From a phage, in the NCBI GenBank assembly GCA_030873995.1, contig GCA_030873995.1_4701.1: a stretch of DNA of 45,609 bases; one strand, given 5' to 3'. Of the stretch, positions 4,922 through 41,683 are shown piece by piece. A program made the position numbers and the translations under genes. Within the stretch, counting starts at the first letter, position 1. The number at the start of each line of letters is the position of its first letter. Under the pieces are notes generated by a model. The model searched no databases. It was given only the letters and a program-made list of their open reading frames with translations, and was not told the DNA's origin.

Positions 4922-6130
4922 ATGTCTACACCGAATACTCTGACTAACGTTGCTGTATCTGCATCCGGTGAGGTTGACAGTCTTCTCATTGAGAAGTTTA
5001 ATGGTAAGGTGAATGAGCAGTACCTGAAAGGTGAGAACATTCTGTCTTACTTTGATGTACAAACTGTTACTGGCACTAACACAGTGAGCAACAAATATTT
5101 GGGCGAAACTGAGTTGCAGGTGCTAGCACCGGGTCAGTCTCCTAATGCCACCCCTACTCAGGCGGATAAAAACCAGTTGGTAATTGATACCACTGTCATT
5201 GCTCGTAACACTGTGGCTCACATCCACGATGTACAAGGTGACATCGATAGCCTGAAACCAAAACTGGCTATGAACCAAGCCAAGCAACTGAAACGTCTGG
5301 AAGACCAGATGGCAATTCAGCAGATGCTGTTAGGCGGTATTGCTAACACCAAGGCCAAACGTGACAAGCCGCGTGTTAAAGGGCATGGCTTCTCTATCAA
5401 CGTTAACGTAACTGAGAGTGAAGCACTGGCTAACCCTCAGTATGTTATGGCTGCGGTAGAGTATGCTCTGGAGCAACAGCTTGAGCAGGAAGTGGACATC
5501 TCTGATGTAGCTATCATGATGCCGTGGAAGTTCTTCAATGCTCTGCGTGATGCAGACCGAATTGTAGATAAGACTTACACTATCAGCCAGTCTGGTGCAA
5601 CCATTAATGGCTTCGTTCTCTCTTCTTATAACTGCCCTGTGATCCCGTCTAACCGGTTCCCTACCTTCGCTCAGAATCAGGCTCACCACCTGTTGTCTAA
5701 TGAAGATAACGGCTATCGTTATGACCCTATCGCAGAGATGAATGGTGCAGTTGCTGTTCTGTTCACTGCCGACGCACTGCTGGTGGGTCGTACCATTGAA
5801 GTGACTGGTGACATCTTCTATGAGAAGAAAGAGAAGACTTATTACATTGACACCTTCATGGCTGAGGGTGCAATCCCTGACCGTTGGGAAGCAGTGTCTG
5901 TAGTCACTACTAAGCGTAATGGTACTACTGGTGTCGCAGATGGAGAAGGCACAGACCACGCCACTGTTCTGTCCCGTGCGCAGCGTAAGGCTGTATATGT
6001 CAAGACCGCAGGTGCTGCGGCTGCATTCTCTGCTGCACCAGCAGGTATCCAAGCGGAAGACCTTGTAGCGGCGGTACGTGCTGTAATGGCAAATGACATC
6101 AAGCCGACTGCACTGAAACCTACTGAGTAA
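4922..6130 (+). CDS. major capsid protein
   Basis: 402 aa; own phage promoter with 5' hairpin upstream, strong hairpin terminator downstream; T7 gp10 position. Confidence 0.85.
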   Translation: MSTPNTLTNVAVSASGEVDSLLIEKFNGKVNEQYLKGENILSYFDVQTVTGTNTVSNKYLGETELQVLAPGQSPNATPTQADKNQLVIDTTVIARNTVAHIHDVQGDIDSLKPKLAMNQAKQLKRLEDQMAIQQMLLGGIANTKAKRDKPRVKGHGFSINVNVTESEALANPQYVMAAVEYALEQQLEQEVDISDVAIMMPWKFFNALRDADRIVDKTYTISQSGATINGFVLSSYNCPVIPSNRFPTFAQNQAHHLLSNEDNGYRYDPIAEMNGAVAVLFTADALLVGRTIEVTGDIFYEKKEKTYYIDTFMAEGAIPDRWEAVSVVTTKRNGTTGVADGEGTDHATVLSRAQRKAVYVKTAGAAAAFSAAPAGIQAEDLVAAVRAVMANDIKPTALKPTE

Positions 6131-6185: not shown

Positions 6186-6926
6186 ATGCCTTTAATTCAA
6201 AATACAAGTGATGTTGGACGTATCATGGCTGAGGCTTCCTTCAATATCATTGATAGCAAGCTGGAAGCAGTTAACCTGTGTATGCGAGCTATTGGTCGTG
6301 AGGGTGTGGATTCCCTTGACTCTGGCGACTTAGATGCTGAAGATGCTAACAAGATTATTGATATTGTCTCACAACGTTTCCAATACAATAAGGGCGGTGG
6401 TTGGTGGTTTAACAGAGAACCTAACTGGTTACTTAAACCTGACACAAATGGTGAAGTGAACATGCCAAACAATTGCCTTGCTGTTCTCCAATGCTATGCT
6501 CTGGGTGAACGTAAAGTCCCTATGACTATGCGCGCAGGTAAACTGTACTCTGTTTGGAATCACACTTTCGACATGTCAAAGTATGTGAATCAGGATGGGC
6601 GTATTAGGTTGACTTTGGTAACATTGCTGCCTTTTGAGCATCTACCTGCAAGCGTAATGCAAGCCATTGCCTATCAGGCTGCCGTAGAGTTTATTGTGTC
6701 TAAAGATGCAGATAAGACTAAACTACAAGCACACCAGCAGATTGCAGCACAATTGATGATTGATGTTCAGTCAGAGCAGTCTTCTCAGAAGAGACTTAAT
6801 ATACTTGTACATAACCCCACTCAGCGCAACTTTGGCATTATGGCAGGTGGCTCTCAGAATGTACCAGCGTTCTCCTATTCACCTTATGACACTTACCCTG
6901 TAAGGCCGTGGGAGGTTGATAGATAA
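6186..6926 (+). CDS. tail tubular protein A (gp11-like)
   Basis: N-terminal block IGREGVDSLDSGDLDAEDANKII...GGGWWFN resembles the T7 gp11 N-terminus as recalled. Confidence 0.75.
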   Translation: MPLIQNTSDVGRIMAEASFNIIDSKLEAVNLCMRAIGREGVDSLDSGDLDAEDANKIIDIVSQRFQYNKGGGWWFNREPNWLLKPDTNGEVNMPNNCLAVLQCYALGERKVPMTMRAGKLYSVWNHTFDMSKYVNQDGRIRLTLVTLLPFEHLPASVMQAIAYQAAVEFIVSKDADKTKLQAHQQIAAQLMIDVQSEQSSQKRLNILVHNPTQRNFGIMAGGSQNVPAFSYSPYDTYPVRPWEVDR

Positions 6927-9331
6927 TGGAAGTACAAGGCTCTTTAGGTCGTCAGATTCAAGGTATTAGCCAACAACCAGCAGCAGTGCGGTTAGATGGT
7001 CAATGTACTGATATGGTTAATATGGTTCCAGATGTAGTCAACGGTACACAATCTCGCATGGGAAGCACACACATTGCTAGGCTTCTTGATTCTGGTGACG
7101 AAAACATGGCAACACATCATTACCGCAGAGGTGATGGTGTAGAGGAATATTTCTTCATTATGAAGAAAGGTAGCGTGCCAGAAATATTTGACAAAGAAGG
7201 TCGTAAATGCACTGTGACCTCTCAGGATGAACCTATGGCCTATCTTGCTGAGGTTGTGAACCCGAGAGAAGACGTGCAGTTCATGACTATTGCTGATGTA
7301 ACATTTATGCTTAACAGGCGTAAAGTAGTGAAAGCTCGTAGTGATAAGTCTCCAAAGGTGGGAAACAAGGCTATTGTGTTTTCTGCCTACGGGCAGTATG
7401 GCACTTCGTACACTATCTCTATTAACGGCGAGCAAGCGGCGACCTTCAAAACTCCAGATGGAAGCGACCCTAGTCATGTAGAACAGATTCGCACTGAGTA
7501 CCTAGCAACTAAGCTATATGAGAGTTTACAGACATGGAGTAAAGCGTCACAGTACACCTTGCAAAGAGAAGGCACTAGTATCTACATTGAAACTAAAGAT
7601 GGTAGTGATTTCACTATTACTACTACAGATGGGGCCAAGGGTAAGGACTTGGTTGCCATAAAGAACCGAGTGTCATCTACAGACTTACTTCCCTCAAGAG
7701 CACCAGAAGGGTACAAGGTACAGGTGTGGCCTACAGGGAGTAAACCAGAATCTCGGTATTGGCTAGAGGCTGTACCTAAAGAGGGAGGTAACTTAGTTGC
7801 TTGGCAAGAAACTATTGCAGCAGATGTGTTACTTGGCTTTGATAAAGACACTATGCCTTATATTATAGAGCGTACAGGGATTGTCGGAGGTGTGGCACAG
7901 TTTAAGATACGACATGGCGATTGGGAAGACCGTAAGGTAGGCGATGACCTGACTAACCCTATGCCTTCCTTTATTGATGAAGATGTACCACAGGCGATTG
8001 GTGGTATGTTCATGGTGCAGAACCGTCTTTGTGTCACAGCAGGAGAAGCTGTCATAGCAACTAGGACTTCTCACTTCTTTGACTTCTTCCGCTTCTCCGC
8101 AGTGTCTGAGGTTGCAACAGATCCTTTTGATATTTTCTCAGATGCAAGTGAGGTCTACCAGCTCAAACATGCAGTAACCCTAGATGGGGCAACGATATTA
8201 TTCTCAGACACATCTCAGTTCATACTTCCTGGGGATAAAGTATTAGAGAAATCTAATGTCATACTCAAGCCTGCTACAACTTTCGAAGTGGATAATAGGG
8301 TGTCACCTGTGGCAACTGGTGAATCCGTGATGTTTGCTACAAGTGAAGGTGCTTACTCTGGTGTGCGTGAGTTTTATACCGACTCTTACAGCGACACTAA
8401 GAAAGCACAGGCTGTTACTAGTCATGTTAACAAGTTGATAGAAGGTAATATAACTCATATGGTTGCTAGCACTAATATCAACAGGTTACTTGTGGTAACA
8501 GACAGGGACCCTAATATTGTCTATTGCTATGACTGGTTGTGGCAAGGGACAGATCGTGTACAATCTGCATGGCATAAGTGGGTGTGGCCTAAAGATACTT
8601 TGATTCGCTCTATGTTCTATTCCTCAGAGGTATTGTATCTCCTTGTAGAACGAGGTAATACTGGTTTGTATCTAGAGGTGATGGATATGGGTGATGCTCT
8701 TACTTATGGTTTAGTTGACAGAATTAGACTGGATAGGCAAGCAGAGTTGATCTTCACCTATGATGCTAATACAGACCAGTGGGTTTCTAATGAGTTGCCT
8801 TGGAAGCCTACTGACCCAGCCTTACTTGAGTGTGTGATAATTCAAGGGTGGCCTGCTTATATTGGTGGTTCTTTTCATTTTGAATATGATGAAGCCAGTA
8901 ATAAGCTAATTACAACTTTTGATTTATCAGAAGAAGGCACTAATGCTATAGCTGTCGTAGGGCAGTTGTATCAGCAGGAGTTTGAGCCAACACAGGTCGT
9001 TATTCGAGATAACCAAGATAGAGTGTCCTACATAGATGTGCCAGTGGTAGGCCTAGTTCACCTTAACTTGGATAAATACCCTGACTTTGAAGTTCATATC
9101 AAGAACTTAAAGAGTGGCAAATTAAGAAAGGCTTTGGCATCTAACAGGAAAGGCGGGGCACTTAATAATGTTGTTGGTTATGTCAAGCCAGAAGAGGGGT
9201 CATTCAAATTTCCACTAAGATCCCTTAGTACAGATACTGTTTATCGTATCATTGTTAACTCCCCTCATACATTCCAACTCAGGGATATTGAGTGGGAAGG
9301 TTCGTATAACCCAACTAAGAGGAGGGTATAA
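6926..9331 (+). CDS. tail tubular protein B (gp12-like)
   Basis: 801 aa, size and position as T7 gp12. Confidence 0.8.
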   Translation: MEVQGSLGRQIQGISQQPAAVRLDGQCTDMVNMVPDVVNGTQSRMGSTHIARLLDSGDENMATHHYRRGDGVEEYFFIMKKGSVPEIFDKEGRKCTVTSQDEPMAYLAEVVNPREDVQFMTIADVTFMLNRRKVVKARSDKSPKVGNKAIVFSAYGQYGTSYTISINGEQAATFKTPDGSDPSHVEQIRTEYLATKLYESLQTWSKASQYTLQREGTSIYIETKDGSDFTITTTDGAKGKDLVAIKNRVSSTDLLPSRAPEGYKVQVWPTGSKPESRYWLEAVPKEGGNLVAWQETIAADVLLGFDKDTMPYIIERTGIVGGVAQFKIRHGDWEDRKVGDDLTNPMPSFIDEDVPQAIGGMFMVQNRLCVTAGEAVIATRTSHFFDFFRFSAVSEVATDPFDIFSDASEVYQLKHAVTLDGATILFSDTSQFILPGDKVLEKSNVILKPATTFEVDNRVSPVATGESVMFATSEGAYSGVREFYTDSYSDTKKAQAVTSHVNKLIEGNITHMVASTNINRLLVVTDRDPNIVYCYDWLWQGTDRVQSAWHKWVWPKDTLIRSMFYSSEVLYLLVERGNTGLYLEVMDMGDALTYGLVDRIRLDRQAELIFTYDANTDQWVSNELPWKPTDPALLECVIIQGWPAYIGGSFHFEYDEASNKLITTFDLSEEGTNAIAVVGQLYQQEFEPTQVVIRDNQDRVSYIDVPVVGLVHLNLDKYPDFEVHIKNLKSGKLRKALASNRKGGALNNVVGYVKPEEGSFKFPLRSLSTDTVYRIIVNSPHTFQLRDIEWEGSYNPTKRRV

Positions 9332-10056
9332 TGGCAGTAATGGCAACAGTAGGATCAAGCCTAGCCAGTATGTTCTCCAGTAGTGCAGGTGCTGCGGCTG
9401 CTAGTAGTGCTGCTGGTAGTGCCGCCGCTGGGAGTGGTGGTGTGCTTGGCTCTGTCGGAAGTTTCTTAGGTGGAAGCTCTGCTGGCTTTTCTAATGCAGG
9501 TTTGTTGTCTGCTGGACTACAAGGCTTAAACTTACTAGGCGGCCTATTCGGTGGACGAGATACCGCTAAGGCTATGCAGAAAGCACAAGAAGAAGAGTGG
9601 AGACAAAGGCTAGAAGCCACACGTGAAGCCTATTCTTCTGTGGCAAATGCAGAACGGTCTGCTGCAAAGCAATATCATTCTGACTTCCTTAATAATCAAA
9701 TTTCACTGATGCAGCAACGAGCGCAAGTTGCAGTAATGGCAGGTGCTACTGGAACAGGTGGTAGCTCCATCACATCCATGCTCAATGATTTGACGGCAGA
9801 AGGCGGTCGTAATCAGTCAACCATTATAGATAATTATGAGAATCAGCAAATCAGCTTTGCCAACCAGTTGAAGTCTATTCAACGCAGTGGACAGATGCAG
9901 ATGCGAACGTTTGACAAACCTTCCGCTTTGGGTACTTTGGTGAAAGGTATACCAAGCCTTGCATCTTCTTATGTCACCGGAAGTAAAGCAGGTATGGCGC
10001 TTGGCAAGGCTATCACTGAGTCTCGTACTTATTCATCAGGAACTAGAGGAGTTTAA
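9331..10056 (+). CDS. internal virion protein (gp14-like)
   Basis: 241 aa, Gly/Ala/Ser-rich N-terminus; first of three ejection-protein genes after tail tube B. Confidence 0.55.
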   Translation: MAVMATVGSSLASMFSSSAGAAAASSAAGSAAAGSGGVLGSVGSFLGGSSAGFSNAGLLSAGLQGLNLLGGLFGGRDTAKAMQKAQEEEWRQRLEATREAYSSVANAERSAAKQYHSDFLNNQISLMQQRAQVAVMAGATGTGGSSITSMLNDLTAEGGRNQSTIIDNYENQQISFANQLKSIQRSGQMQMRTFDKPSALGTLVKGIPSLASSYVTGSKAGMALGKAITESRTYSSGTRGV

Positions 10057-13002: not shown

Positions 13003-13048
13003 TATACTCAAGGTTTGTCTCACATGTGAGACATGCCTTTATGAATGA
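13003..13048 (+). promoter_or_regulatory. RNase III-type processing site candidate
   Basis: GTTATACTCAAGG - extended hairpin around palindrome 13019..13034 - CCTTTATGAAT; same flanks recur at 39984..40021. Confidence 0.45.
13019..13034 (+). repeat. 16-bp perfect palindrome GTCTCACATGTGAGAC (copy 1)
   Basis: Read directly; flanks extend the stem. Confidence 0.9.
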
Positions 13049-13066: not shown

Positions 13067-16000
13067 ATGGTTGATAGTATTAACCAAAATTGGGTGGCGG
13101 TGACTCAACGCAAGTTACCGCCTACCTTCTCTCAAGTTGCTGAAGCAGAGCGTAAGGCCGAAGCACAGAGAGCTAATGACAAAGTATTCCAAACAGCCAT
13201 AGAGAGTGAGTGGGCTTTGTATGGTGGACAACGTGCCTATGAACGCCACACTACAGAGTTTGCTGAACAAGAAGGTTATGAAGTACCTGAATCAACTAAG
13301 GATGAACTATCCAAGTTGTATGGGTATGAAATAGCGCAAGACATAGTCAAGAATGTGAAGTCTCCAGAAGAGTTGCAATTCCGTATGTCTAATGCTGCTG
13401 CGGATAAAGACAGAGCAGACATCTTAGCACGTAATGGTTTCACAGGTTTCAGCGCACAGATTGCTGCTGGTATTCTTGACCCTGTAGGTTGGGCGGCTTC
13501 TCTAGTAGCTGCACCTGTAGCTGGTGCTGTCAAAGTAGGTCGTCTAGGTAGGATTATCAAGACGGCTGCCTTATCTGGTGCTGAAAATGCTGCATTAGAA
13601 GCTGTGCTTGCACAAGGTGATTACCAGCGAGGTGTCGATGATGTACTGGCTGCTGCCGGGTTTGGTATGATTATGGGCGGTACTATTGGCGCTGCAACTA
13701 GGGAACGCATAGCCAGTGCTGGTTCTCGTACAGCGGCAGAGAGAGCAGAGGCTGTATTTGATGACTTGGACACCGTAGTAAAAGGTGCTGATGAGTTTGA
13801 CTCGTCTGCTGCTCGTGCTGTACGTGAGGCCATGGAGTATGACGCGTATATGGCAGCACGTAATTATGAACCACTTCGTGCAAGAGAGGTGGATGCAGAT
13901 ATGGCAATTCTATCTCACACAGACAACTTGAAAGCCAATGCGTCGGTAAGGATGAGTGCTAGTGAGAAAGGACTACTGAAGAAACAGATACGCCAACTGG
14001 AAGCAGAAGCAGCCACACTTAAGGGGAAGAAGATAGATGCTGTAGCAGAGGCTGCCGCCGCTAAGGGTGCACCTAAATCTGCTGCGGACAGATTGGATTT
14101 AGATGTTCAGAAGAAAGCACTGGCACGTAGATTCGATGAACCACTTGCTGATTTACAAGCGCGTCTTGATGAGTTGAATGCCAAGTTATCTCGTGCGAAC
14201 AATGTAGGTAAGGCTAAGGAGGAGCTTAAGAGATTCTCATCGCTGTCCCGTGAAGATCAAATAAAGGAACTAGGTTTAGACGCACCAATGCGTAAGGTGG
14301 AGATGACCCGTGCTGTACGAGATGCAGTAGCTGCAATCCGTGCCGAACGTAAGAAGACACCTACCGAGATACATGCTGAACAAGCTGCAGAAGAGGTAAT
14401 CAAGCAAAAGGCAGATGACTCTATTGGTGCTAAACGTGTTGAAGGTTCAGAGATTGCAGGCGAGCAGTTTGACTTATCTAAAAACATGGAAGAACTTATG
14501 GATGACTTGGCACGAGAAGCATATCAGTCAGAGGTGCGGCCTATTAATCTTAAGGGTCTAGGTTCAGTGTCTTCTGTGATTCTTAACTCAGAGAATCCTG
14601 TGTTCCGAGGTCTAGGTCTTCGTCTGCTTGAAAACGCTCAAGGTGGTGCATACCAAGGTAAGACAGCTTCTATCTTATCAGATGTGTATGGCAACCTTAT
14701 TCGTCATGCAGAACGTAACAGGTACAATGATGGTTTCTCTCAATTCATCAAAGATAACAACCTACGTGCGGTAGATTATCTTAACCCTGCAACGACACGG
14801 GATTTCAATAATCAGATTTATACAGCAATTGTTCGTGGCATACCAGAAGATACACCTCGTGGTGTTAAACTGGCAGCAGAAGGTATCGCTGATAAACTCA
14901 AGAAAGCACTTGAGATTCGTAAGCAAGCAGGAGAGCATGGATTCGAAGATATACAATCTGCTAAGGATTACATCCCTGTTATCTATGACGGTATCAAGGT
15001 TACTGAGGCAGTTAACAAATTGGGGAGTAGTGAGGCTGTTATTCACTTACTATCCAAAGGTTACCAGACAGGTAAGTACAAACTTGGCAAGAAAGCTGCG
15101 GATGCCCTAGCAAAAGTACAGTACATTCGTGCATCGGACTCCACCCTCTCTAGTCGTGTTGCATTCGATAGGGTGGTATCCCAGCAGCAGCAGGCTCAAT
15201 TGATTGAGGATCTGAAGAAAGCAGGGGTACCAGACCATATCATTGATAATTTCATTGAAGGTACTGAATTAGCAGAAATGGCTGAATCGGTATCCAATCG
15301 AGCTAAAGCTAGTATGGGTATTAATACGCAAGCCGAATATGGCGGTTTGAAGGTGCAGGATTTGCTTAATACAAACGTAGGGGAGCTAGCGGAGAACTAC
15401 GGCAAAGAGGCAGCGGGTGGTGCTGCATTGGCTGCTATGGGTTTCCCTACTCGCCAATCTGTGCTGAACGCAATAGATGCCGCAGAACGCGCAGGCCGCA
15501 ATATGGCGGGGTCAAATGCTAAGGCAATCAAACAGCTTAGGTCTGAGGCAGAAATGCTCAGAGATGCCGTTAAGTTAATTTACGGCAACACTATCGACGC
15601 CGACCCTAACTCTGGAATTGTCAGGGGTACTCGACGTGTCCGTGAGATTACAGGGTTGTTACGATTAGGCCAAATGGGCTTCGCTCAGATACCTGAACTG
15701 GCACGTGCAATCTCTAAGATGGGACTAGGGACTGTGCTGAAGTCTGTACCTGCCACTAAGTTCTTACGTTCGAGAGCGGCTCGTAAAGGTGGCACTGCTC
15801 AGGGTGAGTTGCTTGAACCTGAACTGCGAGAAATGGAGGAACTCTTAGGTTATATCGGGGAGGATAACTGGCTCACAGGGTGGAATGTCCGTCATGATGA
15901 GTTCGGAGAAACTGCGGATAACCTAGGTAAGCTGTCTGCTATTATTGATAACGGATTAGCTATGGGTAGTAGAATCAACACAATACTATCTGGTTTTAAA

Positions 16001-26999: not shown

Positions 27000-27686
27000 C
27001 CAAAGGTGGTCACAAAGTAACCAAAGTCAAAATTTTGATGTAGGCGTGTGTGAGGTGTCTCGCCCTCGCCCTCGCCGGGTTGTCCCCATAGGGTGGCCTG
27101 AGGGAATCCGTCTTCGACGGGCAGGGCTGATGTACTCCTTGCCTAGTACAAGGGAGGCGGAGTGAACGCCTGGGACGGCCTAGGGAATGGCTTAGTGGTG
27201 GACAAGGTGATTACCTTAGTGAAGCCTCTTAGTGCATTCCTTAGGCCATTCAGGGCGTTTATGAGGTATTGACAGGGTGGATGGGTGTGGGCTATCTGTT
27301 CGTTTCGCTACGCTTCACTCACTGCTCCTCACTTCGTTCGTCGCTGCGGTAGCCTGATGTGTACCTTAGGTTATTACTTGATGGATAGCTTAGGTTAGCC
27401 TTAGTGGATTACCTTAGTTAAAGCCTTAGTGCTTCACTTAGTATCAGCTTAGTAGTGTACCTTAGTCAGACTTAGTGTCTTCTCTTAGTGATTGCATAGC
27501 TAAAGCTATAAGATGCAAATAGGTCGCGGTCGGTAGACCGCTAAAGAAAGAGAATGGTAATAAGATGCAGTAGGAGGAACACCAGAAACCTAGCCAACCT
27601 AAGCTATCCTAGCTCTATATCTATTGCTTTTCCTTAGTCTAACACGTTAGACAACCTATCTTATTCTTAGTGATGGTAACTTAGTG

Positions 27687-27715
27687 TTGACAAGATAATC
27701 TTAGTGTAATACTAT
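27687..27715 (+). promoter_or_regulatory. sigma70-type early promoter candidate
   Basis: TTGACA, 17-bp spacer, TACTAT; first strong host-type promoter after the repeat-rich terminal region. Confidence 0.55.
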
Positions 27716-29014: not shown

Positions 29015-29128
29015 ATGGAAAAGCTATACAACTTTATCTTTTCAGACGGTGTAACCCTGAAGTGTTCCCTACGATTCGCACAAATTCGTGAGGAAGTACT
29101 AGGCACTACATACAAACTATTTAGCTGA
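29015..29128 (+). CDS. small ORF (37 aa) directly after ocr
   Basis: ATG 2 nt after the ocr stop; no homology recognised. Confidence 0.35.
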   Translation: MEKLYNFIFSDGVTLKCSLRFAQIREEVLGTTYKLFS

Positions 29129-29141
29129 CACTATAAGAGAA
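29119..29141 (+). promoter_or_regulatory. variant phage-RNAP promoter candidate with A at +1
   Basis: ATTTAGCTGACACTATAAGAGAA; three mismatches at -12 to -10; lies in the early region upstream of the RNAP gene. Confidence 0.4.
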
Positions 29142-29432: not shown

Positions 29433-29495
29433 CTAGCCTATAGCCTACCTGAGTGGGCTATGTGATATTTACTTACACTATATAAGGTGACTATT

Positions 29496-30419
29496 ATGAC
29501 TACTGAAAACACCCTCCTGTCTGTTCGTGAAGCTGCAACCGCTGAAATCAAGCAGCACTTAGACAATATCGGCACTTCTTACATCAAAGTTGGCGCTTGT
29601 CTGAATGAATTACGCGGTGATTTCGAAGGTCAAAAAGACTTTTTAGCTTATGTAGAATCAGAGTTTGGCATCAAGAAAGCACAATGCTACAAGCTGATGA
29701 GTGTAGCCCGTGTCTTTGAAGGAGACGAACGCTTTAAAGGTGTGGCTATGCGTGTAATGCTGGCGCTTGTTCCTTTCGCTGATGAAAATATAATCATGGA
29801 GAAGGCCGCAGAACTCGCCGCAGCTGGCAAGCTGGACACTAATGCCGTAAATGCCCTGATTGATCCTAAGAAAGAGACAAAGGCCGAGACGGTACAATCT
29901 AAGGCTGAGACAGTAAAACCGCAGGAGAACGCGACTGAGGCCGCAGAAACTATGCAAGGACATGCAACCTTTGAGGATTTCATCTTAGAGAAGGCGAAGG
30001 AGGAGTTACAAAGTGTGCCGCCAGTAAGTGAGTCGGGTAACGACGAATCCGCACCGTGGGAAGATGAAAGCAAGCCGGAAGGCACAAAGGCAGCACCGCT
30101 GGATAACACGGTTAATACCGAAAACGCCGCTATTGCTGGTCTGCTGGCACAAATTAAAGCACTGACCGAGCAATTACAGGCAGCTAATGACCGCATTGCC
30201 TCCTTAAGCAGCGCACGCGAAAGCAAGAAAGCAGCCGCGCCTATGCTGCCGCAATTCAAATCTTCCTGCTTCTATGCTCGCTTAGGTTTAAGCGCTGAGG
30301 AGGCAACGAAGAAAACAGCAGTTAACAAGGCACGCCGCGAACTGGTTAAGCTAGGCTACGGCGAAGGCCATGAAGCATGGCCCTTAATCTCTGAGGCAGT
30401 AGAAGAATTAACTAAGTAA
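29496..30419 (+). CDS. early protein of unknown function (307 aa) immediately upstream of the RNAP gene
   Basis: AAGGTG RBS; Ala/Glu-rich low-complexity middle; occupies the T7 gene 0.7 position but has no kinase motifs. Confidence 0.6.
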   Translation: MTTENTLLSVREAATAEIKQHLDNIGTSYIKVGACLNELRGDFEGQKDFLAYVESEFGIKKAQCYKLMSVARVFEGDERFKGVAMRVMLALVPFADENIIMEKAAELAAAGKLDTNAVNALIDPKKETKAETVQSKAETVKPQENATEAAETMQGHATFEDFILEKAKEELQSVPPVSESGNDESAPWEDESKPEGTKAAPLDNTVNTENAAIAGLLAQIKALTEQLQAANDRIASLSSARESKKAAAPMLPQFKSSCFYARLGLSAEEATKKTAVNKARRELVKLGYGEGHEAWPLISEAVEELTK

Positions 30420-30482: not shown

Positions 30483-33110
30483 ATGCAAGACCTACACGCT
30501 ATTCAACTTCAACTTGAAGAAGAAATGTTTAACGGAGGTATCCGTCGCTTTGAAGCGGACCAACAACGCCAGATTGCATCCGGTAATGAATCCGACACGG
30601 CATGGAATCGCCGCTTATTGTCTGAGTTAATCGCGCCAATGGCTGAAGGCATTCAGGCATACAAGGAAGAGTATGAAGGTAAAAGAGGCCGTGCACCGCG
30701 TGCATTAGCTTTCATTAACTGCGTAGAAAACGAAGTGGCAGCATATATCACGATGAAAATCGTTATGGATATGCTGAACACGGATGTAACCTTGCAGGCT
30801 ATAGCCATGAATGTAGCTGACCGCATTGAGGACCAAGTACGTTTTAGCAAGCTGGAAGGTCACGCCGCCAAATACTTTGAGAAAGTTAAGAAGTCACTTA
30901 AGGCAAGTAAGACTAAATCATATCGCCATGCGCACAACGTAGCGGTCGTGGCTGAGAAGTCAGTAGCTGACCGTGACGCTGATTTCTCTCGCTGGGAGGC
31001 GTGGCCTAAAGATACCTTGCTACAAATCGGTATGACCTTGCTAGAAATACTGGAAAATAGTGTATTCTTCAATGGTCAGCCTGTCTTTCTTCGCACCTTG
31101 CGCACTAATGGTGGCAAGCATGGCGTTTACTACTTACAGACTAGCGAACACGTGGGTGAATGGATAACTGCATTTAAAGAGCACGTAGCTCAGCTGAGTC
31201 CAGCCTATGCGCCTTGCGTTATTCCTCCTCGTCCGTGGGTTTCTCCGTTTAATGGTGGCTTCCATACCGAGAAAGTGGCGAGTCGTATTCGTCTGGTTAA
31301 AGGAAACCGCGAGCACGTCCGCAAGCTGACCAAAAAGCAAATGCCAGCGGTTTACAAGGCTGTTAACGCTTTGCAGGCGACTAAGTGGCAGGTTAATAAA
31401 GAGGTTTTGCAGGTAGTAGAGGACGTTATCCGTCTCGACCTTGGTTATGGTGTGCCTTCCTTTAAACCGCTCATCGACCGTGAGAACAAGCCAGCTAATC
31501 CAGTGCCGTTAGAGTTCCAGCACCTGCGAGGCCGTGAACTTAAAGAGATGCTAACGCCGGAACAATGGCAAGCCTTCATCAACTGGAAAGGCGAATGTAC
31601 CAAGCTGTATACCGCTGAAACTAAGCGCGGCAGCAAGTCGGCGGCAACCGTTCGTATGGTCGGGCAGGCCCGTAAATACAGCCAGTTTGACGCAATATAC
31701 TTCGTGTATGCACTGGATAGCCGTTCACGCGTTTATGCGCAATCTAGCACGCTCTCGCCGCAATCAAACGACTTAGGCAAGGCATTGCTCCGTTTTACCG
31801 AAGGGCAGCGTCTTGATAGCGCTGAGGCGCTTAAGTGGTTTTTGGTGAACGGGGCGAATAACTGGGGTTGGGATAAGAAAACTTTTGACGTGCGCACCTC
31901 TAACGTGCTGGATGGCGAATTTCAAGACATGTGCCGCGACATTGCAGCCGATCCGCTGACCTTCACTCAATGGGTAAATGCTGATTCCCCTTACGGCTTC
32001 CTTGCATGGTGCTTTGAATATGCGCGTTATCTGGATGCACTGGATGAAGGCACGCAAGACCAATTCATGACGCACCTACCCGTCCATCAAGACGGTAGTT
32101 GCTCTGGTATCCAGCACTATAGCGCGATGTTACGCGATGAAGTAGGTGCGAAAGCAGTAAACCTTAAGCCTTCTGACTTCCCTCAAGATATTTATGGCGC
32201 GGTTGCGCAGGTTGTTATCCAGAAGAATTACGCCTACATGAATGCAGACGATGCAGAGACTTTCACATCTGGAAGCGTCACACTTACAGGTGCAGAACTG
32301 CGTAGCATGGCTAGTGCGTGGGATATGATAGGAATAACTCGCGGATTGACCAAAAAGCCCGTAATGACACTACCTTATGGCAGCACACGTCTAACCTGCC
32401 GTGAATCAGTGATTGATTATATCGTTGATTTGGAAGAAAAAGAGGCCCAACGAGCTATTGCGGAAGGGCGTACCGCCAATCCTGTACACCCTTTTGATAA
32501 TGACCGTAAGGACAGCCTGACACCTAGCGCAGCTTATAACTATATGACAGCTTTAATCTGGCCTTCTATTTCGGAAGTGGTTAAAGCTCCTATAGTGGCA
32601 ATGAAAATGATTCGTCAGCTTGCCCGTTTCGCAGCTAAAAGGAATGAAGGCTTAGAGTATACCTTGCCTACTGGCTTCATCTTGCAACAAAAGATTATGG
32701 CTACTGATATGCTCCGCGTATCCACTTGCCTGATGGGAGAAATCAAGATGAGTCTACAGATTGAAACGGACGTAGTGGATGAAACGGCTATGATGGGCGC
32801 TGCTGCTCCTAACTTTGTGCATGGTCATGATGCCAGTCACCTTATCTTAACAGTCTGCGACCTTGTTGATAAAGGGATTACATCTATCGCAGTCATTCAT
32901 GATTCTTTCGGTACTCACGCAGGCCGTACAGCCGATCTTCGTGATAGCTTAAGGGCAGAAATGGTGAAGATGTATCAAGGCCGTAATGCCCTGCAAAGCC
33001 TGTTAGATGAGCATGAAGAACGCTGGTTAGTAGACACCGGAATCCAAGTGCCAGAGCAAGGAGAGTTTGACCTTAACGAAATCTTAGTATCTGACTATTG
33101 CTTCGCATAA
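30483..33110 (+). CDS. single-subunit DNA-dependent RNA polymerase (T7/SP6 type)
   Basis: 875 aa; [17 protein letters not shown] and HDSFGT catalytic motifs; C-terminus ends CFA. Confidence 0.95.
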
Positions 33111-33118
33111 TATTAATA

Positions 33119-33149
33119 GGCCATTCCTTCGGGAGTGGCCTTTTCTTTT
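33119..33149 (+). terminator. intrinsic terminator after the RNAP gene (early terminator analog)
   Basis: 9-bp stem GGCCATTCC/GGAGTGGCC with UUCG tetraloop, then TTTTCTTTT. Confidence 0.8.
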
Positions 33150-33183: not shown

Positions 33184-33199
33184 GTCTCACATGTGAGAC
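33184..33199 (+). repeat. 16-bp perfect palindrome (copy 2), abuts promoter 33202
   Basis: Read directly. Confidence 0.9.
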
Positions 33200-33201
33200 T
33201 T

Positions 33202-33224
33202 ATTTACCGGACACTATAGGATAG
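33202..33224 (+). promoter_or_regulatory. phage-RNAP promoter (origin-flanking, upstream copy)
   Basis: ATTTACCGGACACTATAGGATAG; C at -11; palindrome 33184..33199 abuts it. Confidence 0.75.
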
Positions 33225-33364
33225 CCGTCGGAGACGGGAAAGAAAGGGAAGATAAAGGATATAAAGGAAGTAATAGGTATTAAAGGTTATATAGGTTATC
33301 TAGGAATACCTATTACCTTCTTCTTTCCTCTTATTACCACTTAGAGGAAGGGCAGATCTAGGTT
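33225..33364 (+). other. candidate primary origin of replication: AT/purine-rich repeat region between twin phage promoters
   Basis: GAAAGAAAGGGAAGATAAAGGATATAAAGGAAG and AGGTTATATAGGTTA repeats with a long imperfect inverted repeat; same arrangement as the T7 primary origin. Confidence 0.45.
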
Positions 33365-33380
33365 GTCTCACATGTGAGAC
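33365..33380 (+). repeat. 16-bp perfect palindrome (copy 3), abuts promoter 33386
   Basis: Read directly. Confidence 0.9.
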
Positions 33381-33385
33381 TTCGT

Positions 33386-33408
33386 ATTTACCGGACAGTA
33401 TAGATAAG
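33386..33408 (+). promoter_or_regulatory. phage-RNAP promoter (origin-flanking, downstream copy)
   Basis: ATTTACCGGACAGTATAGATAAG; G at -5; palindrome 33365..33380 abuts it. Confidence 0.6.
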
Positions 33409-33565: not shown

Positions 33566-35554
33566 ATGGCTATTATTCAGAATGTACCGTGTCCTGCTTG
33601 CCAAAAGAACGGACATGATATTACTGGCAATCATTTAATGATCTTTGACGACGGGGCAGGGTACTGTAACCGTGGTCACTTCCATGATAACGGTAAACCT
33701 TATTACCACAAGCCGGAAGGTGGCATCGAGATAACCGAGTTACCTATTACTGGCAATATCAAATATACACCTTCTCAATTCAAAGAAATGGAGAAGGAAG
33801 GGAAGATAAGCGACCCTAAGCTACGCGCCATCGCACTTGGTGGTATGCGTATGAAAGACCGTTGGGAGGTTATGAATGAGCAAGAAAGGGCAGACCAAGA
33901 AGCAGAGTGGAAACTTGATGTTGAATGGTTCCTCACGCTTAAGCGTAAGAACCTTGTATCCCGTCACATTCGAGGTGACATCGCAGCAATGTACGATGTG
34001 CGCGTTGGACACGATGAAGAGGGAAGAGTCAACCGTCACTATTATCCACGATATGAAAAGGGTGTGTTTGTTGGAGCAAAATGCCGGACGTTGCCGAAGG
34101 ATTTTAAGTTCGGACACCTAGGTAAACTCTTTGGTATGCAAGACCTTTTCGGTATGAACACTTTGTCTCACGTGTTAGACAAGGGGAGACGAAAGGATTG
34201 CTTGCTTATTGTAGGCGGTGAACTTGATGCACTAGCAGCGCAGCAGATGCTCCTTGATTCTGCCAAAGGTACTAAGTGGGAAGGTCAGCCATACCATGTA
34301 TGGTCTGTCAATAAAGGTGAGTCTTGCCTTGAAGAGATAGTGCAAAACCGTGAGCACATAGCCCAATTCAAGAAGATTATATGGGGCTTTGATGGCGACG
34401 AGGTGGGGCAGAAGCAGAACCAACAAGCTGCTCGCCTGTTTCCTGGCAAATCCTACATCCTCGAATATCCATCTGGTTGCAAAGATGCTAACAAGGCATT
34501 GATGGCTGGCAAGGCTAAAGAGTTTGTAGATGCATGGTTTAATGCCAAGTCATCTGATGAAGTCTTTGGTAGCCAGATTAAATCTATCGCATCTCAAAGG
34601 GATAAGCTCAAGGCTGCACGTCCAGAGCAAGGACTATCATGGCCTTGGCCTAAGCTGAACAAGGTAACGCTAGGTATTCGTAAGAACCAACTTATCATTG
34701 TAGGCGCAGGCTCTGGTGTAGGTAAGACTGAGTTCCTTCGTGAAGTAGTTAAGCACCTCATTGAAGAACACGGTGAATCTGTAGGCATCATTTCTACAGA
34801 AGACCCGATGGTCAAGGTGTCCCGTGCTTTTATCGGCAAGTGGATTGATAAGCGTATTGAGTTACCGCCAACCAACGACCCGAAAGAAGATGGATACCGT
34901 GAGGTGTTCGACTACACCGAGGAAGAGGCTAACGCCGCCATTGATTATGTAGCTGATACAGGTAAGCTGTTTGTAGCTGACCTAGAGGGTGACTATTCGA
35001 TGGAAAAGGTAGAGCAAACTTGCCTAGAGTTTGAGGCTATGGGCATTTCTAATATCATCATTGATAACTTAACGGGGATTAAATTAGATGAGCGTGCTTT
35101 TGGTGGGAAGGTTGGTGCACTTGATGAATGCGTCAAGCGGATTGGTACTATCAAAGACCGACACCCGGTTACTATATTCCTTGTATCACACCTTACACGT
35201 CCTCCGGCAAACCGTACCCAACACGAAGAAGGTGGCGAGGTTATCCTTTCTGACTTCCGAGGTTCAGGCGCTATCGGATTCTGGGCATCTTACGCCTTGG
35301 GGATTGAGCGTAATACAAGAGCTGAAACGCTTGATGAACGGACTACCACGTACATCTCATGTGTCAAAGACCGCGACCAAGGTATCTACACTGGAACCAA
35401 GGTCATGCTTAAGGGTGACATTCAAACCGGACGTTTAATGGAACCACAAGCCCGTACTAAGTCATTTGATACAGGTGAAGCAAGGCAACAAGAAGTGCCG
35501 GATTTACCGGACACTATAGAAGAGACAACTTTTGACGATGAACAGGAGTTTTAA
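33566..35554 (+). CDS. DNA primase/helicase (gp4-like)
   Basis: 662 aa; N-terminal Cys4 zinc ribbon, Walker A GAGSGVGKT; acidic C-terminus ending DDEQEF. Confidence 0.9.
   Translation: MAIIQNVPCPACQKNGHDITGNHLMIFDDGAGYCNRGHFHDNGKPYYHKPEGGIEITELPITGNIKYTPSQFKEMEKEGKISDPKLRAIALGGMRMKDRWEVMNEQERADQEAEWKLDVEWFLTLKRKNLVSRHIRGDIAAMYDVRVGHDEEGRVNRHYYPRYEKGVFVGAKCRTLPKDFKFGHLGKLFGMQDLFGMNTLSHVLDKGRRKDCLLIVGGELDALAAQQMLLDSAKGTKWEGQPYHVWSVNKGESCLEEIVQNREHIAQFKKIIWGFDGDEVGQKQNQQAARLFPGKSYILEYPSGCKDANKALMAGKAKEFVDAWFNAKSSDEVFGSQIKSIASQRDKLKAARPEQGLSWPWPKLNKVTLGIRKNQLIIVGAGSGVGKTEFLREVVKHLIEEHGESVGIISTEDPMVKVSRAFIGKWIDKRIELPPTNDPKEDGYREVFDYTEEEANAAIDYVADTGKLFVADLEGDYSMEKVEQTCLEFEAMGISNIIIDNLTGIKLDERAFGGKVGALDECVKRIGTIKDRHPVTIFLVSHLTRPPANRTQHEEGGEVILSDFRGSGAIGFWASYALGIERNTRAETLDERTTTYISCVKDRDQGIYTGTKVMLKGDIQTGRLMEPQARTKSFDTGEARQQEVPDLPDTIEETTFDDEQEF
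35502..35524 (+). promoter_or_regulatory. phage-RNAP promoter embedded in the primase/helicase C-terminal coding tail
   Basis: ATTTACCGGACACTATAGAAGAG, encodes DLPDTIEE. Confidence 0.75.
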
Positions 35555-35732: not shown

Positions 35733-35748
35733 GTCTCACATGTGAGAC
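35733..35748 (+). repeat. 16-bp perfect palindrome (copy 4), extended stem
   Basis: Read directly. Confidence 0.9.
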
Positions 35749-36876: not shown

Positions 36877-36892
36877 GTCTCACGTGTGAGAC
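36877..36892 (+). repeat. 16-bp near-palindrome GTCTCACGTGTGAGAC (copy 5), extended stem
   Basis: Read directly. Confidence 0.9.
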
Positions 36893-41629: not shown

Positions 41630-41645
41630 GTCTCACGTGTGAGAC
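41630..41645 (+). repeat. 16-bp near-palindrome GTCTCACGTGTGAGAC (copy 6), 15 bp upstream of promoter 41661
   Basis: Read directly. Confidence 0.9.
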
Positions 41646-41660
41646 AAATTGGTGTCCGGT

Positions 41661-41683
41661 ATTTACTGGACACTATAGAAGAG
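41661..41683 (+). promoter_or_regulatory. phage-RNAP promoter
   Basis: ATTTACTGGACACTATAGAAGAG exact consensus; palindrome 41630..41645 upstream. Confidence 0.85.

Follow-up and report, generated by a model that had tools for sequence, protein, structure and literature searches.

KorB of plasmid RK2 and its counterparts ParB, Spo0J, Noc, and SopB have cognate palindromes present in multiple copies on their replicon, and in phage T7 the place directly 5' of the RNA polymerase (RNAP) gene belongs to gene 0.7, whose product (gp0.7) is a Ser/Thr kinase that shuts off host transcription. Here we analyzed a contig of 45,609 nucleotides (GCA_030873995.1_4701.1; this whole stretch of DNA is hereafter called the window) from a Vectrevirus, a phage of the K1E/K1-5 group of SP6-like Autographiviridae, and in particular a gene at 29496-30419 that encodes a 307-amino-acid (aa) protein. 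The protein is 64% identical to the product of SP6 gene 7 (gp7); in the numbering of K1E, where the RNAP is gene 7, the homologue would be gp6 (PMC4099482). The protein probably binds specific DNA sequences in the genome of its own phage, where it would serve as a KorB-like global operator regulator or organizer, and by analogy it is best read as working like an operator binder of the KorB/ParB type. This reading draws on computed domain folds, a family of palindromic sites, co-variation between the sites and the protein, and synteny with the RNAP gene. What is new here, on our best reading, is an operator protein of a T7-like lytic phage that joins a helix-turn-helix to a degenerate J domain, together with a palindrome family.

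The window contains a 16-bp palindrome, GTCTCAC-NN-GTGAGAC, in six copies with perfect half-sites, while 0.23 matches are expected by chance in the window at up to 3 mismatches. The six perfect copies all lie between genes (intergenic share of the window, 9.7%; P about 8e-7), and three of them end 2, 5, and 15 bp 5' of position -17 of phage promoters. The sites, including one imperfect copy and one variant, are as follows:

33184-33199, no strand assigned: palindrome GTCTCACATGTGAGAC, ending 2 bp 5' of the promoter at 33202-33218; syntenic copy in SP6 at 6093, with the core switched
33365-33380, no strand assigned: palindrome GTCTCACATGTGAGAC, ending 5 bp 5' of the promoter at 33386-33402; syntenic copy in SP6 at 6264
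35733-35748, no strand assigned: palindrome GTCTCACATGTGAGAC, intergenic, 3' of the primase/helicase gene; syntenic copy in SP6 at 8547
36877-36892, no strand assigned: palindrome GTCTCACGTGTGAGAC, intergenic; syntenic copy in SP6 at 9383
41630-41645, no strand assigned: palindrome GTCTCACGTGTGAGAC, ending 15 bp 5' of the promoter at 41661-41677; syntenic copy in SP6 at 14255
13017-13032, no strand assigned: palindrome GTCTCACATGTGAGAC, intergenic in the late region, between two internal-virion-protein genes; syntenic copy in SP6 at 30569
34165-34180, no strand assigned: imperfect copy GTCTCACGTGTTAGAC, inside the primase/helicase gene, encoding S202-H203; SP6 copy at the matching codons, 7071
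27637-27652, no strand assigned: variant palindrome GTCTAACACGTTAGAC (GTCTAAC..GTTAGAC), near the left genome end

In SP6, nine copies were found at positions syntenic with those of the window; their flanks are conserved, and every core is now GTC(T/C)AAC. The switch extends to the copy in the primase gene, where the encoded residues have changed accordingly. Because the residues encoded at such copies vary according to site class, the protein sequence is under constraint from the DNA site. Copies inside coding sequence at conserved codons were observed in the primase/helicase gene both here (34165-34180) and in SP6, and other phages carry the palindrome at one fixed place in the RNAP gene (L005 at 4636, L037 at 12656, and L024 at 12380). 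Complementarity does not extend past the 16-17 bp core of the sites, which argues against long RNA hairpins or terminators. The variant at 27637 ends 34 bp 5' of the -35 hexamer of a sigma-70-like early promoter (27687-27715), and syntenic copies 5' of the early genes were found in SP6 (493), VEN (571), and Pseudomonas phages (about 440). This copy is GTCTAAC as against GTCTCAC elsewhere in the genome, and the SP6 copy at this place is also of mixed form; the variant may be a deliberately weaker autoregulatory site.

Among 40 IMG/VR loci with a homologue of the protein, almost all that cover the region 3' of the gene carry a multi-copy palindrome of the architecture GTCnnAC-N2/3-GTnnGAC; one locus, L201, has too little sequence 3' of the gene for a judgment. 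T7, which is without the gene, has no such palindrome: its top palindrome occurs in 2 copies, and shuffled genomes gave at most 2. When IMG/VR was scanned in reverse with the window palindrome, 11 of the 12 stretches with at least two sites, among the matches listed, were SP6-like phages. Separately, an unrelated viral contig (L144) has three GTCTCAC-type palindromes within about 100 bp (2411-2512), with no gp7 homologue in the 14.8 kb covered.

The half-site changes from phage to phage together with the protein. Residue 66 of gp7 goes with base 5 of the half-site: K is found with C, N or H with A, and S, A, or D with G. The combinations of residues and half-sites are listed below:

Q63/Y65/K66 with GTCTCAC: 22 of 22 loci, among them L054 and phages of Erwinia, Vibrio, and Pseudomonas whose DNA-binding domain has just 41-53% identity with that of the window
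N66 or H66 with GTC(C/T)AAC: the SP6 clade (75-77% identical to the window), L196, and L198
S66 or A66 with GTCTGAC: L197 and L199
D66 with GTCCGAC: L200
Y63/R66 with GTCTACA: L051-L053
W63/R66 with GTCTAGT: L046 and L048
S65 with GTTTCAC: L036 and L037

Since L196, L197, L199, and L200 belong to a single clade, the change at base 5 within it is accompanied by one at residue 66 alone. Furthermore, N66 together with A at base 5 is found in three unrelated lineages (the SP6 clade, L196, and L198, according to the identity table). Residue 66 of gp7 predicts site class better than any other of 1771 alignment columns of gp7, RNAP, and primase, with a normalized mutual information (NMI) of 0.75; RNAP reaches 0.65 at best and primase 0.62. 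The primase columns S202/H203, which score 0.60, are just the residues that the site inside the gene specifies. Contacts of Lys with G and of Asn with A are a classic mode of base recognition. The phage RNAP was also considered as the reader of the palindrome. The promoters of SP6 and the window are nearly alike but their palindromes differ, while VEN has a different promoter and the same half-site; because promoter type and palindrome type are thus uncoupled, the RNAP cannot be the palindrome reader.

An AlphaFold2 model of the protein was built on a 43-sequence alignment, and a single-sequence model with a predicted local distance difference test score (pLDDT) of 51 was discarded. The alignment has two conserved blocks with a variable acidic stretch between them, and the model is confident at residues 10-125 (pLDDT about 85) and 250-307 (pLDDT above 90). 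The parts of the protein are as follows:

29523-29870, + strand: predicted N-terminal all-helical DNA-binding domain, residues 10-125, with a ParB/KorB-type helix-turn-helix, DUF3102-like
29676-29717, + strand: predicted recognition helix, residues 61-74, KKAQCYKLMSVARV, with specificity residues Q63, Y65, and K66
29871-30110, + strand: disordered acidic linker, residues 126-205, containing an ESAPWED motif (pLDDT below 50; length-variable in the alignment)
30126-30215, + strand: four-heptad zipper, residues 211-240, a probable dimerization element (heptads read from the sequence)
30240-30416, + strand: invariant PxLPQF motif and degenerate J domain, residues 249-307

The model predicts a helix-turn-helix DNA-binding domain of the ParB fold, formed by helices 46-57 and 61-74. 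The original prediction, made from the letters of the window, had missed this N-terminal domain. Its low-complexity linker was borne out: the Ala/Glu/Thr/Lys-rich residues from about 126 to 205 vary in length and are predicted to be disordered. The ESAPWED motif within the linker (residues 184-190, about 30045-30065) reads DD[IV]PFD in the Vibrio-phage homologues, and such an acidic-aromatic motif occurs in 24 of 136 family representatives. These motifs resemble the acidic-aromatic C-terminal tails of SSB and of T7 gp2.5 and gp4, which bind replisome proteins; the likeness is at most a lead toward the replisome. The zipper has I213, L216, I220, L223, L227, A230, I234, and L237 at its a/d positions; it lies on one long helix in the model (residues 205-246), L223 is nearly invariant in the alignment, and weak SlyX and DivIC coiled-coil matches cover it (Pfam, sub-threshold). 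All Pfam matches of the 307-aa protein are sub-threshold, and those to SMC, Rad50, SlyX, and DivIC were set aside as generic coiled-coil noise. The P-x-L-P-Q-F motif lies just N-terminal to the J-like domain and is conserved across the whole family.

As for the N-terminal domain, 16 of 28 relatives matched DUF3102 (PF11300, a domain of unknown function) weakly, with a best E of 5.7e-4 and all below the gathering score of 24.4 bits, and the 307-aa protein gave zero Pfam match to DUF3102. Two relatives are named DUF3102 in UniRef, and the nearest viral structures (BFVD) include DUF3102 phage proteins. A profile of the N-terminal domain searched against all Protein Data Bank (PDB) sequences returned no ParB, KorB, or Noc, and its top matches were spurious odorant-binding proteins; a direct PDB sequence search with the 307-aa protein gave chance matches only (beta-lactamase).

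The C-terminal residues 249-307 form a compact domain with pLDDT above 90, and these 59 residues model as a J fold. The original prediction had noted that FYARLGLSAEEATKKTAVNKARRELVKL (residues 259-286, in the most conserved and best-modelled part) loosely resembles a J-domain helix without the HPD tripeptide. The ancestry behind this likeness is real, while the protein itself, without HPD, fails the test for a J domain. Its helix II-III loop is shortened and reads L-G-Y-G-E-G-H (residues 286-292), with Y288-G289-E290 at the place of HPD; in the SP6/Vibrio group the loop is G-Y-G-x-G-H with G287, Y288, and H292 invariant, and the profile alignment with the RabJ J domain has a 6-residue gap at 'LLHPDK'. 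Pfam DnaJ (PF00226) did not match the 307-aa protein even at E<=1. Distant relatives, however, pass the Pfam DnaJ cut-off of 27.8 bits (P0281 with 43.7 bits and P0278 with 31.7 bits), and P0197 (26.0 bits), P0235, P0213, and P0214 fall just under it. The C-termini of the family are graded, from GYGxGH through IYTAATN, and HYNPDTN and HYTPETN, to a true HPD (LYHPD in P0278 and IHHPDK in P0281). Because distant relatives keep HPD and pass the threshold, the J-likeness is homology and not chance; at the level of sequence, these relatives support common descent, not membership of the 307-aa protein in the J-domain family. As it fails the HPD test, it is not to be classed as a J-domain protein, and with HPD lost the domain probably no longer fires the DnaK ATPase; it probably serves as a protein-contact module for some partner. 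The HPD-keeping relatives were found only on contigs shorter than 2 kb, and IMG/VR scans with them gave nothing useful. Many distant homologues (P0163-P0262, 340-512 aa) have an extra 70-200 N-terminal residues with a conserved ARTKxAF motif; this extension has no Pfam match and is absent from the 307-aa protein.

The gene and its surroundings are given below:

29496-30419, + strand: gene for the 307-aa protein, SP6 gp7/K1E gp6 homologue (ATG at 29496, TAA ending at 30419)
29484-29489, + strand: ribosome-binding site AAGGTG, 6 nt 5' of the ATG, read from the sequence
30483-33110, + strand: gene for the single-subunit RNAP, 875 aa, the conserved 3' neighbor
29119-29135, + strand: phage-RNAP promoter ATTTAGCTGACACTATA, 5' of a 75-aa open reading frame (ORF), the 307-aa gene, and the RNAP gene; a promoter-pattern match

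The ORF of 307 aa at 29496-30419 is present as originally described. A program-made ORF list places its start at GTG 29487; we take 29496 because this GTG lies inside the ribosome-binding site and homologues start with MTTEN. The placing of the gene in the gene 0.7 position also held, with the RNAP gene starting at 30483, 63 bp 3' of the 307-aa gene, as compared with 70 bp between the end of gene 0.7 and gene 1 in T7. Of 45 loci, 44 have an RNAP homologue that starts about 70-1500 bp 3' of the gp7 homologue. The gene lies in the early region, 3' of sigma-70-like promoters (27687 and 28271) and the phage promoter (29119), and the strong terminator is only 3' of the RNAP gene (33118-33141). Promoter-pattern matches in the window number 12 on the + strand and 13 on both strands, against a chance expectation of 1.8. 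A promoter-like ATTTACTTACACTATA at 29467-29482, directly 5' of the gene and overlapping the ribosome-binding region, was rejected as a promoter: one nucleotide of the consensus is missing, and SP6 does not conserve it. It is probably vestigial or a chance match.

Between the 75-aa ORF and the 307-aa gene there is a 10-pair hairpin (29439-29462 in the window and about 2375-2400 in L001). SP6 has a hairpin at the same place with other stem bases (TATAGCC...GGCTATG against TATAGTG...CACTATG); since the changes compensate one another, the hairpin may be a site of RNA processing or regulation. Past the RNAP gene, a non-coding purine-rich stretch of ~165 bp (33219-33364) lies between the promoters at 33202 and 33386, with a palindrome 5' of each promoter; it has one 12-bp stem, and its overall folding is modest (z -1.85). 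Relative to gene 1, T7 phi1.1A/B have a position equivalent to that of this promoter pair, and their position is that of the T7 primary origin.

The family is widespread. By megablast, 71 phage records match at least 80% of the length of the gene, and its counterpart in Escherichia phage vB-Eco-KMB14 is 99% identical. By tblastn, homologues are present in 214 phage records, with hosts among Escherichia, Klebsiella, Salmonella, Proteus, Erwinia, Pectobacterium, Vibrio, Pseudomonas, Marinomonas, Aeromonas, and Shewanella. The protein matches phrog_4571 (function unknown) over its full length (E 7.5e-130; residues 1-307 against profile positions 1-287 of 289). At E<=1e-3, 338 protein clusters match, and 468 family members were found when a profile was run against 1.84 billion representatives, one for each 50%-identity cluster. 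Given this breadth, the sequence comparisons place the gene far beyond a chance ORF. Records of homologues carry names such as 'endolysin', 'andolysin', 'periplasmatic protein', and 'similar to DNA polymerase', none of which our analyses support; likewise unsupported here is the label 'gene 0.3?' given by position to the homologue of Vibrio phage phiA318 (PMC4099482). An endolysin or CW_7 reading, suggested by a match to 5i8l and some GenBank names, was rejected, as no lysozyme, CW_7 repeat, or catalytic-domain match was significant. The SP6 annotation lists no T7-lysozyme-type amidase. We found no literature discussing the function of SP6 gp7 or K1E gp6 or the full palindromes in a search that had the original SP6 and K1-5 genome papers outside it, and a literature search with the short heptamer GTCCAAC gave chance matches only.

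Taking these results together, we propose the following mechanism. The ParB/KorB-type helix-turn-helix would read one half-site, GTCTCAC, with K66 of the recognition helix reading base 5, and the four-heptad zipper would pair two chains, so that a dimer would occupy the 16-bp GTCTCAC-NN-GTGAGAC. About eight sites in the genome would be bound: the variant 5' of the host-RNAP early promoters at the left end, two sites flanking the promoter pair just past the RNAP gene, one in the primase gene, and the remaining ones in intergenic positions of the DNA-metabolism region, plus one in the late region. Made early along with the RNAP, the protein would, by analogy with KorB on plasmid RK2, tune early and middle transcription and/or mark the region where replication starts; the outcome could be feedback on the early promoters, tuning of the adjoining middle promoters, or marking of the replication start. 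The last of these is proposed because two sites bracket the promoter pair at the position of the T7 primary origin. The C-terminal J-descended domain, with Y-G-E for HPD, would contact some protein partner rather than activate DnaK.

Several points weigh against the protein being such an operator binder. Binding, dimerization, and any regulatory effect are inferred from computational evidence. The register of the helix-turn-helix depends on the AlphaFold2 model, and the link to ParB/KorB is one of predicted structure, with the protein also falling short of Pfam DUF3102. The site classes are few, so far as the compared sequences go, and their association with the protein is partly inherited and not independent; independent class switches number a modest seven or so. 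A subgroup with the recognition helix KSQAFR (L061 and L202) has no clear palindrome. Finally, half of the sites in the window are not beside a promoter and several lie just 3' of stop codons; therefore, a purely transcriptional operator role cannot explain all of the sites.

The first of the alternatives, which we regard as possible though fairly unlikely, overlaps our preferred explanation. The 307-aa protein might be an origin-binding or replication-accessory protein that binds the palindromes bracketing the two promoters and the 165-bp non-coding stretch past the RNAP gene and helps to load or remodel the replisome. It would act through the J-derived domain and the acidic-aromatic motif of the linker, much as SV40 large T antigen combines a J domain with an origin-binding domain; the arrangement is also reminiscent of DnaJ/DnaK-dependent initiators. 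Consistent with this, the sites at 33184 and 33365 each lie 5' of a promoter on either side of the purine-rich region, at the place equivalent to T7 phi1.1A/B, the T7 primary origin; most sites are among replication genes; the linker motif recalls the tails of SSB, gp2.5, and gp4; and distant relatives carry a true HPD J domain. However, the late region and the DNA 5' of the early promoters also have sites, the 307-aa protein has no HPD, the linker motif is found in only about 18% of representatives, and we found no mapped origin in the literature for the SP6/K1E-type phage group.

We give little weight to a bolder and distinctly speculative version. The family could be a DNA-tethered, J-domain-derived remodelling adaptor that places a J or J-like module at defined sites of the phage genome: ancestral forms with HPD would recruit DnaK, SP6/K1E-type forms would hold a new partner (the phage RNAP or the replisome), and the adaptor would switch transcription or start replication. 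If true, this would be a bacterial-virus counterpart of SV40 large T antigen with a re-programmable one-residue code (residue 66 against base 5).

The original prediction had made the protein a candidate host-takeover factor. In such a role, the J-like domain would act as a decoy or inhibitor of host DnaK/DnaJ, or on some other host target, and DNA binding would localize or buffer the protein. The early expression position in place of gene 0.7 and the real J-domain ancestry fit this explanation, and RB43 Rki is reported to be a phage J-domain protein acting on DnaK and sigma-32 (PMC3486835). Nevertheless, the protein has lost HPD and escapes Pfam DnaJ, PADLOC returned no match to it, and tight co-evolution with cis sites of the phage is not expected of a purely host-directed effector. 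The sole target that the sequence comparisons point to is the phage's own DNA, whose palindrome tracks a residue of the predicted recognition helix, and the host-takeover proposal is therefore left unsupported and unlikely.

Least probable is that the palindromes work at the level of RNA, as short 3' hairpins, processing sites, or weak terminators unrelated to the protein, with residue 66 co-varying by phylogenetic coincidence, because, although several copies start within 2-20 bp of an upstream stop codon, some are followed by T-rich sequence, and a terminator scan flags two of them, the stems are only 6-7 bp with loops of 2-4 nt, the copies in a genome are identical and switch all together between lineages with no compensatory variation within a genome, phages of E. 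coli, Erwinia, Vibrio, and Pseudomonas all keep the heptamer, copies lie inside coding regions at conserved codons, and the N66-A5 pairing arose three times independently.

Phage therapy and biocontrol make wide use of SP6/K1E/K1-5-type phages and of related phages of Klebsiella, Erwinia, Proteus, Vibrio, and Pseudomonas, and a standard RNA polymerase comes from SP6. At least two subfamilies conserve the gene beside the polymerase gene, yet it is annotated as 'hypothetical' or misnamed. Our analysis supplies a testable function, with a predicted DNA site, a reading residue, and eight genomic targets. If the operator-binder reading is true, it would add a genome-wide layer of control in T7-like phages that T7 itself lacks, natural orthogonal protein/operator pairs beside SP6-type promoters for synthetic biology, and a documented case of a J domain that lost HPD and was re-purposed.

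Compared with the known systems, the protein shares with T7 gp0.7 only its position, and the fold differs. As the original prediction held, no kinase or P-loop motif is present: Pfam reported no kinase family even at E<=1, with sub-threshold coiled-coil matches only, and BLASTP against T7 gp0.7 found nothing (best E 8.7 over 10 residues), so the likeness to gene 0.7 is positional only. With J-domain proteins of the DnaJ/Hsp40 family, the phage protein RB43 Rki among them, it has a modelled J fold in common, while HPD is lost in the 307-aa protein. SV40 large T antigen is a functional analogy only, since the domain order is reversed here, the helicase and HPD are absent, and the DNA-binding fold is unrelated. 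KorB, ParB, Spo0J, Noc, and SopB are also among the closest systems. Unlike them, the 307-aa protein is without the N-terminal ParB/Srx (CTP-binding) domain; it starts 9 residues ahead of its DNA-binding domain, and Pfam found no ParBc or ParB-N family. Dimerization would use a zipper beyond a long disordered linker, a J-derived C-terminal domain is present, and the replicon is a lytic phage with promoters read by a single-subunit RNAP. For one feature of a KorB/ParB-type system, the cognate multi-copy palindromes on the replicon, the six perfect and two variant copies in this genome would be the counterpart.

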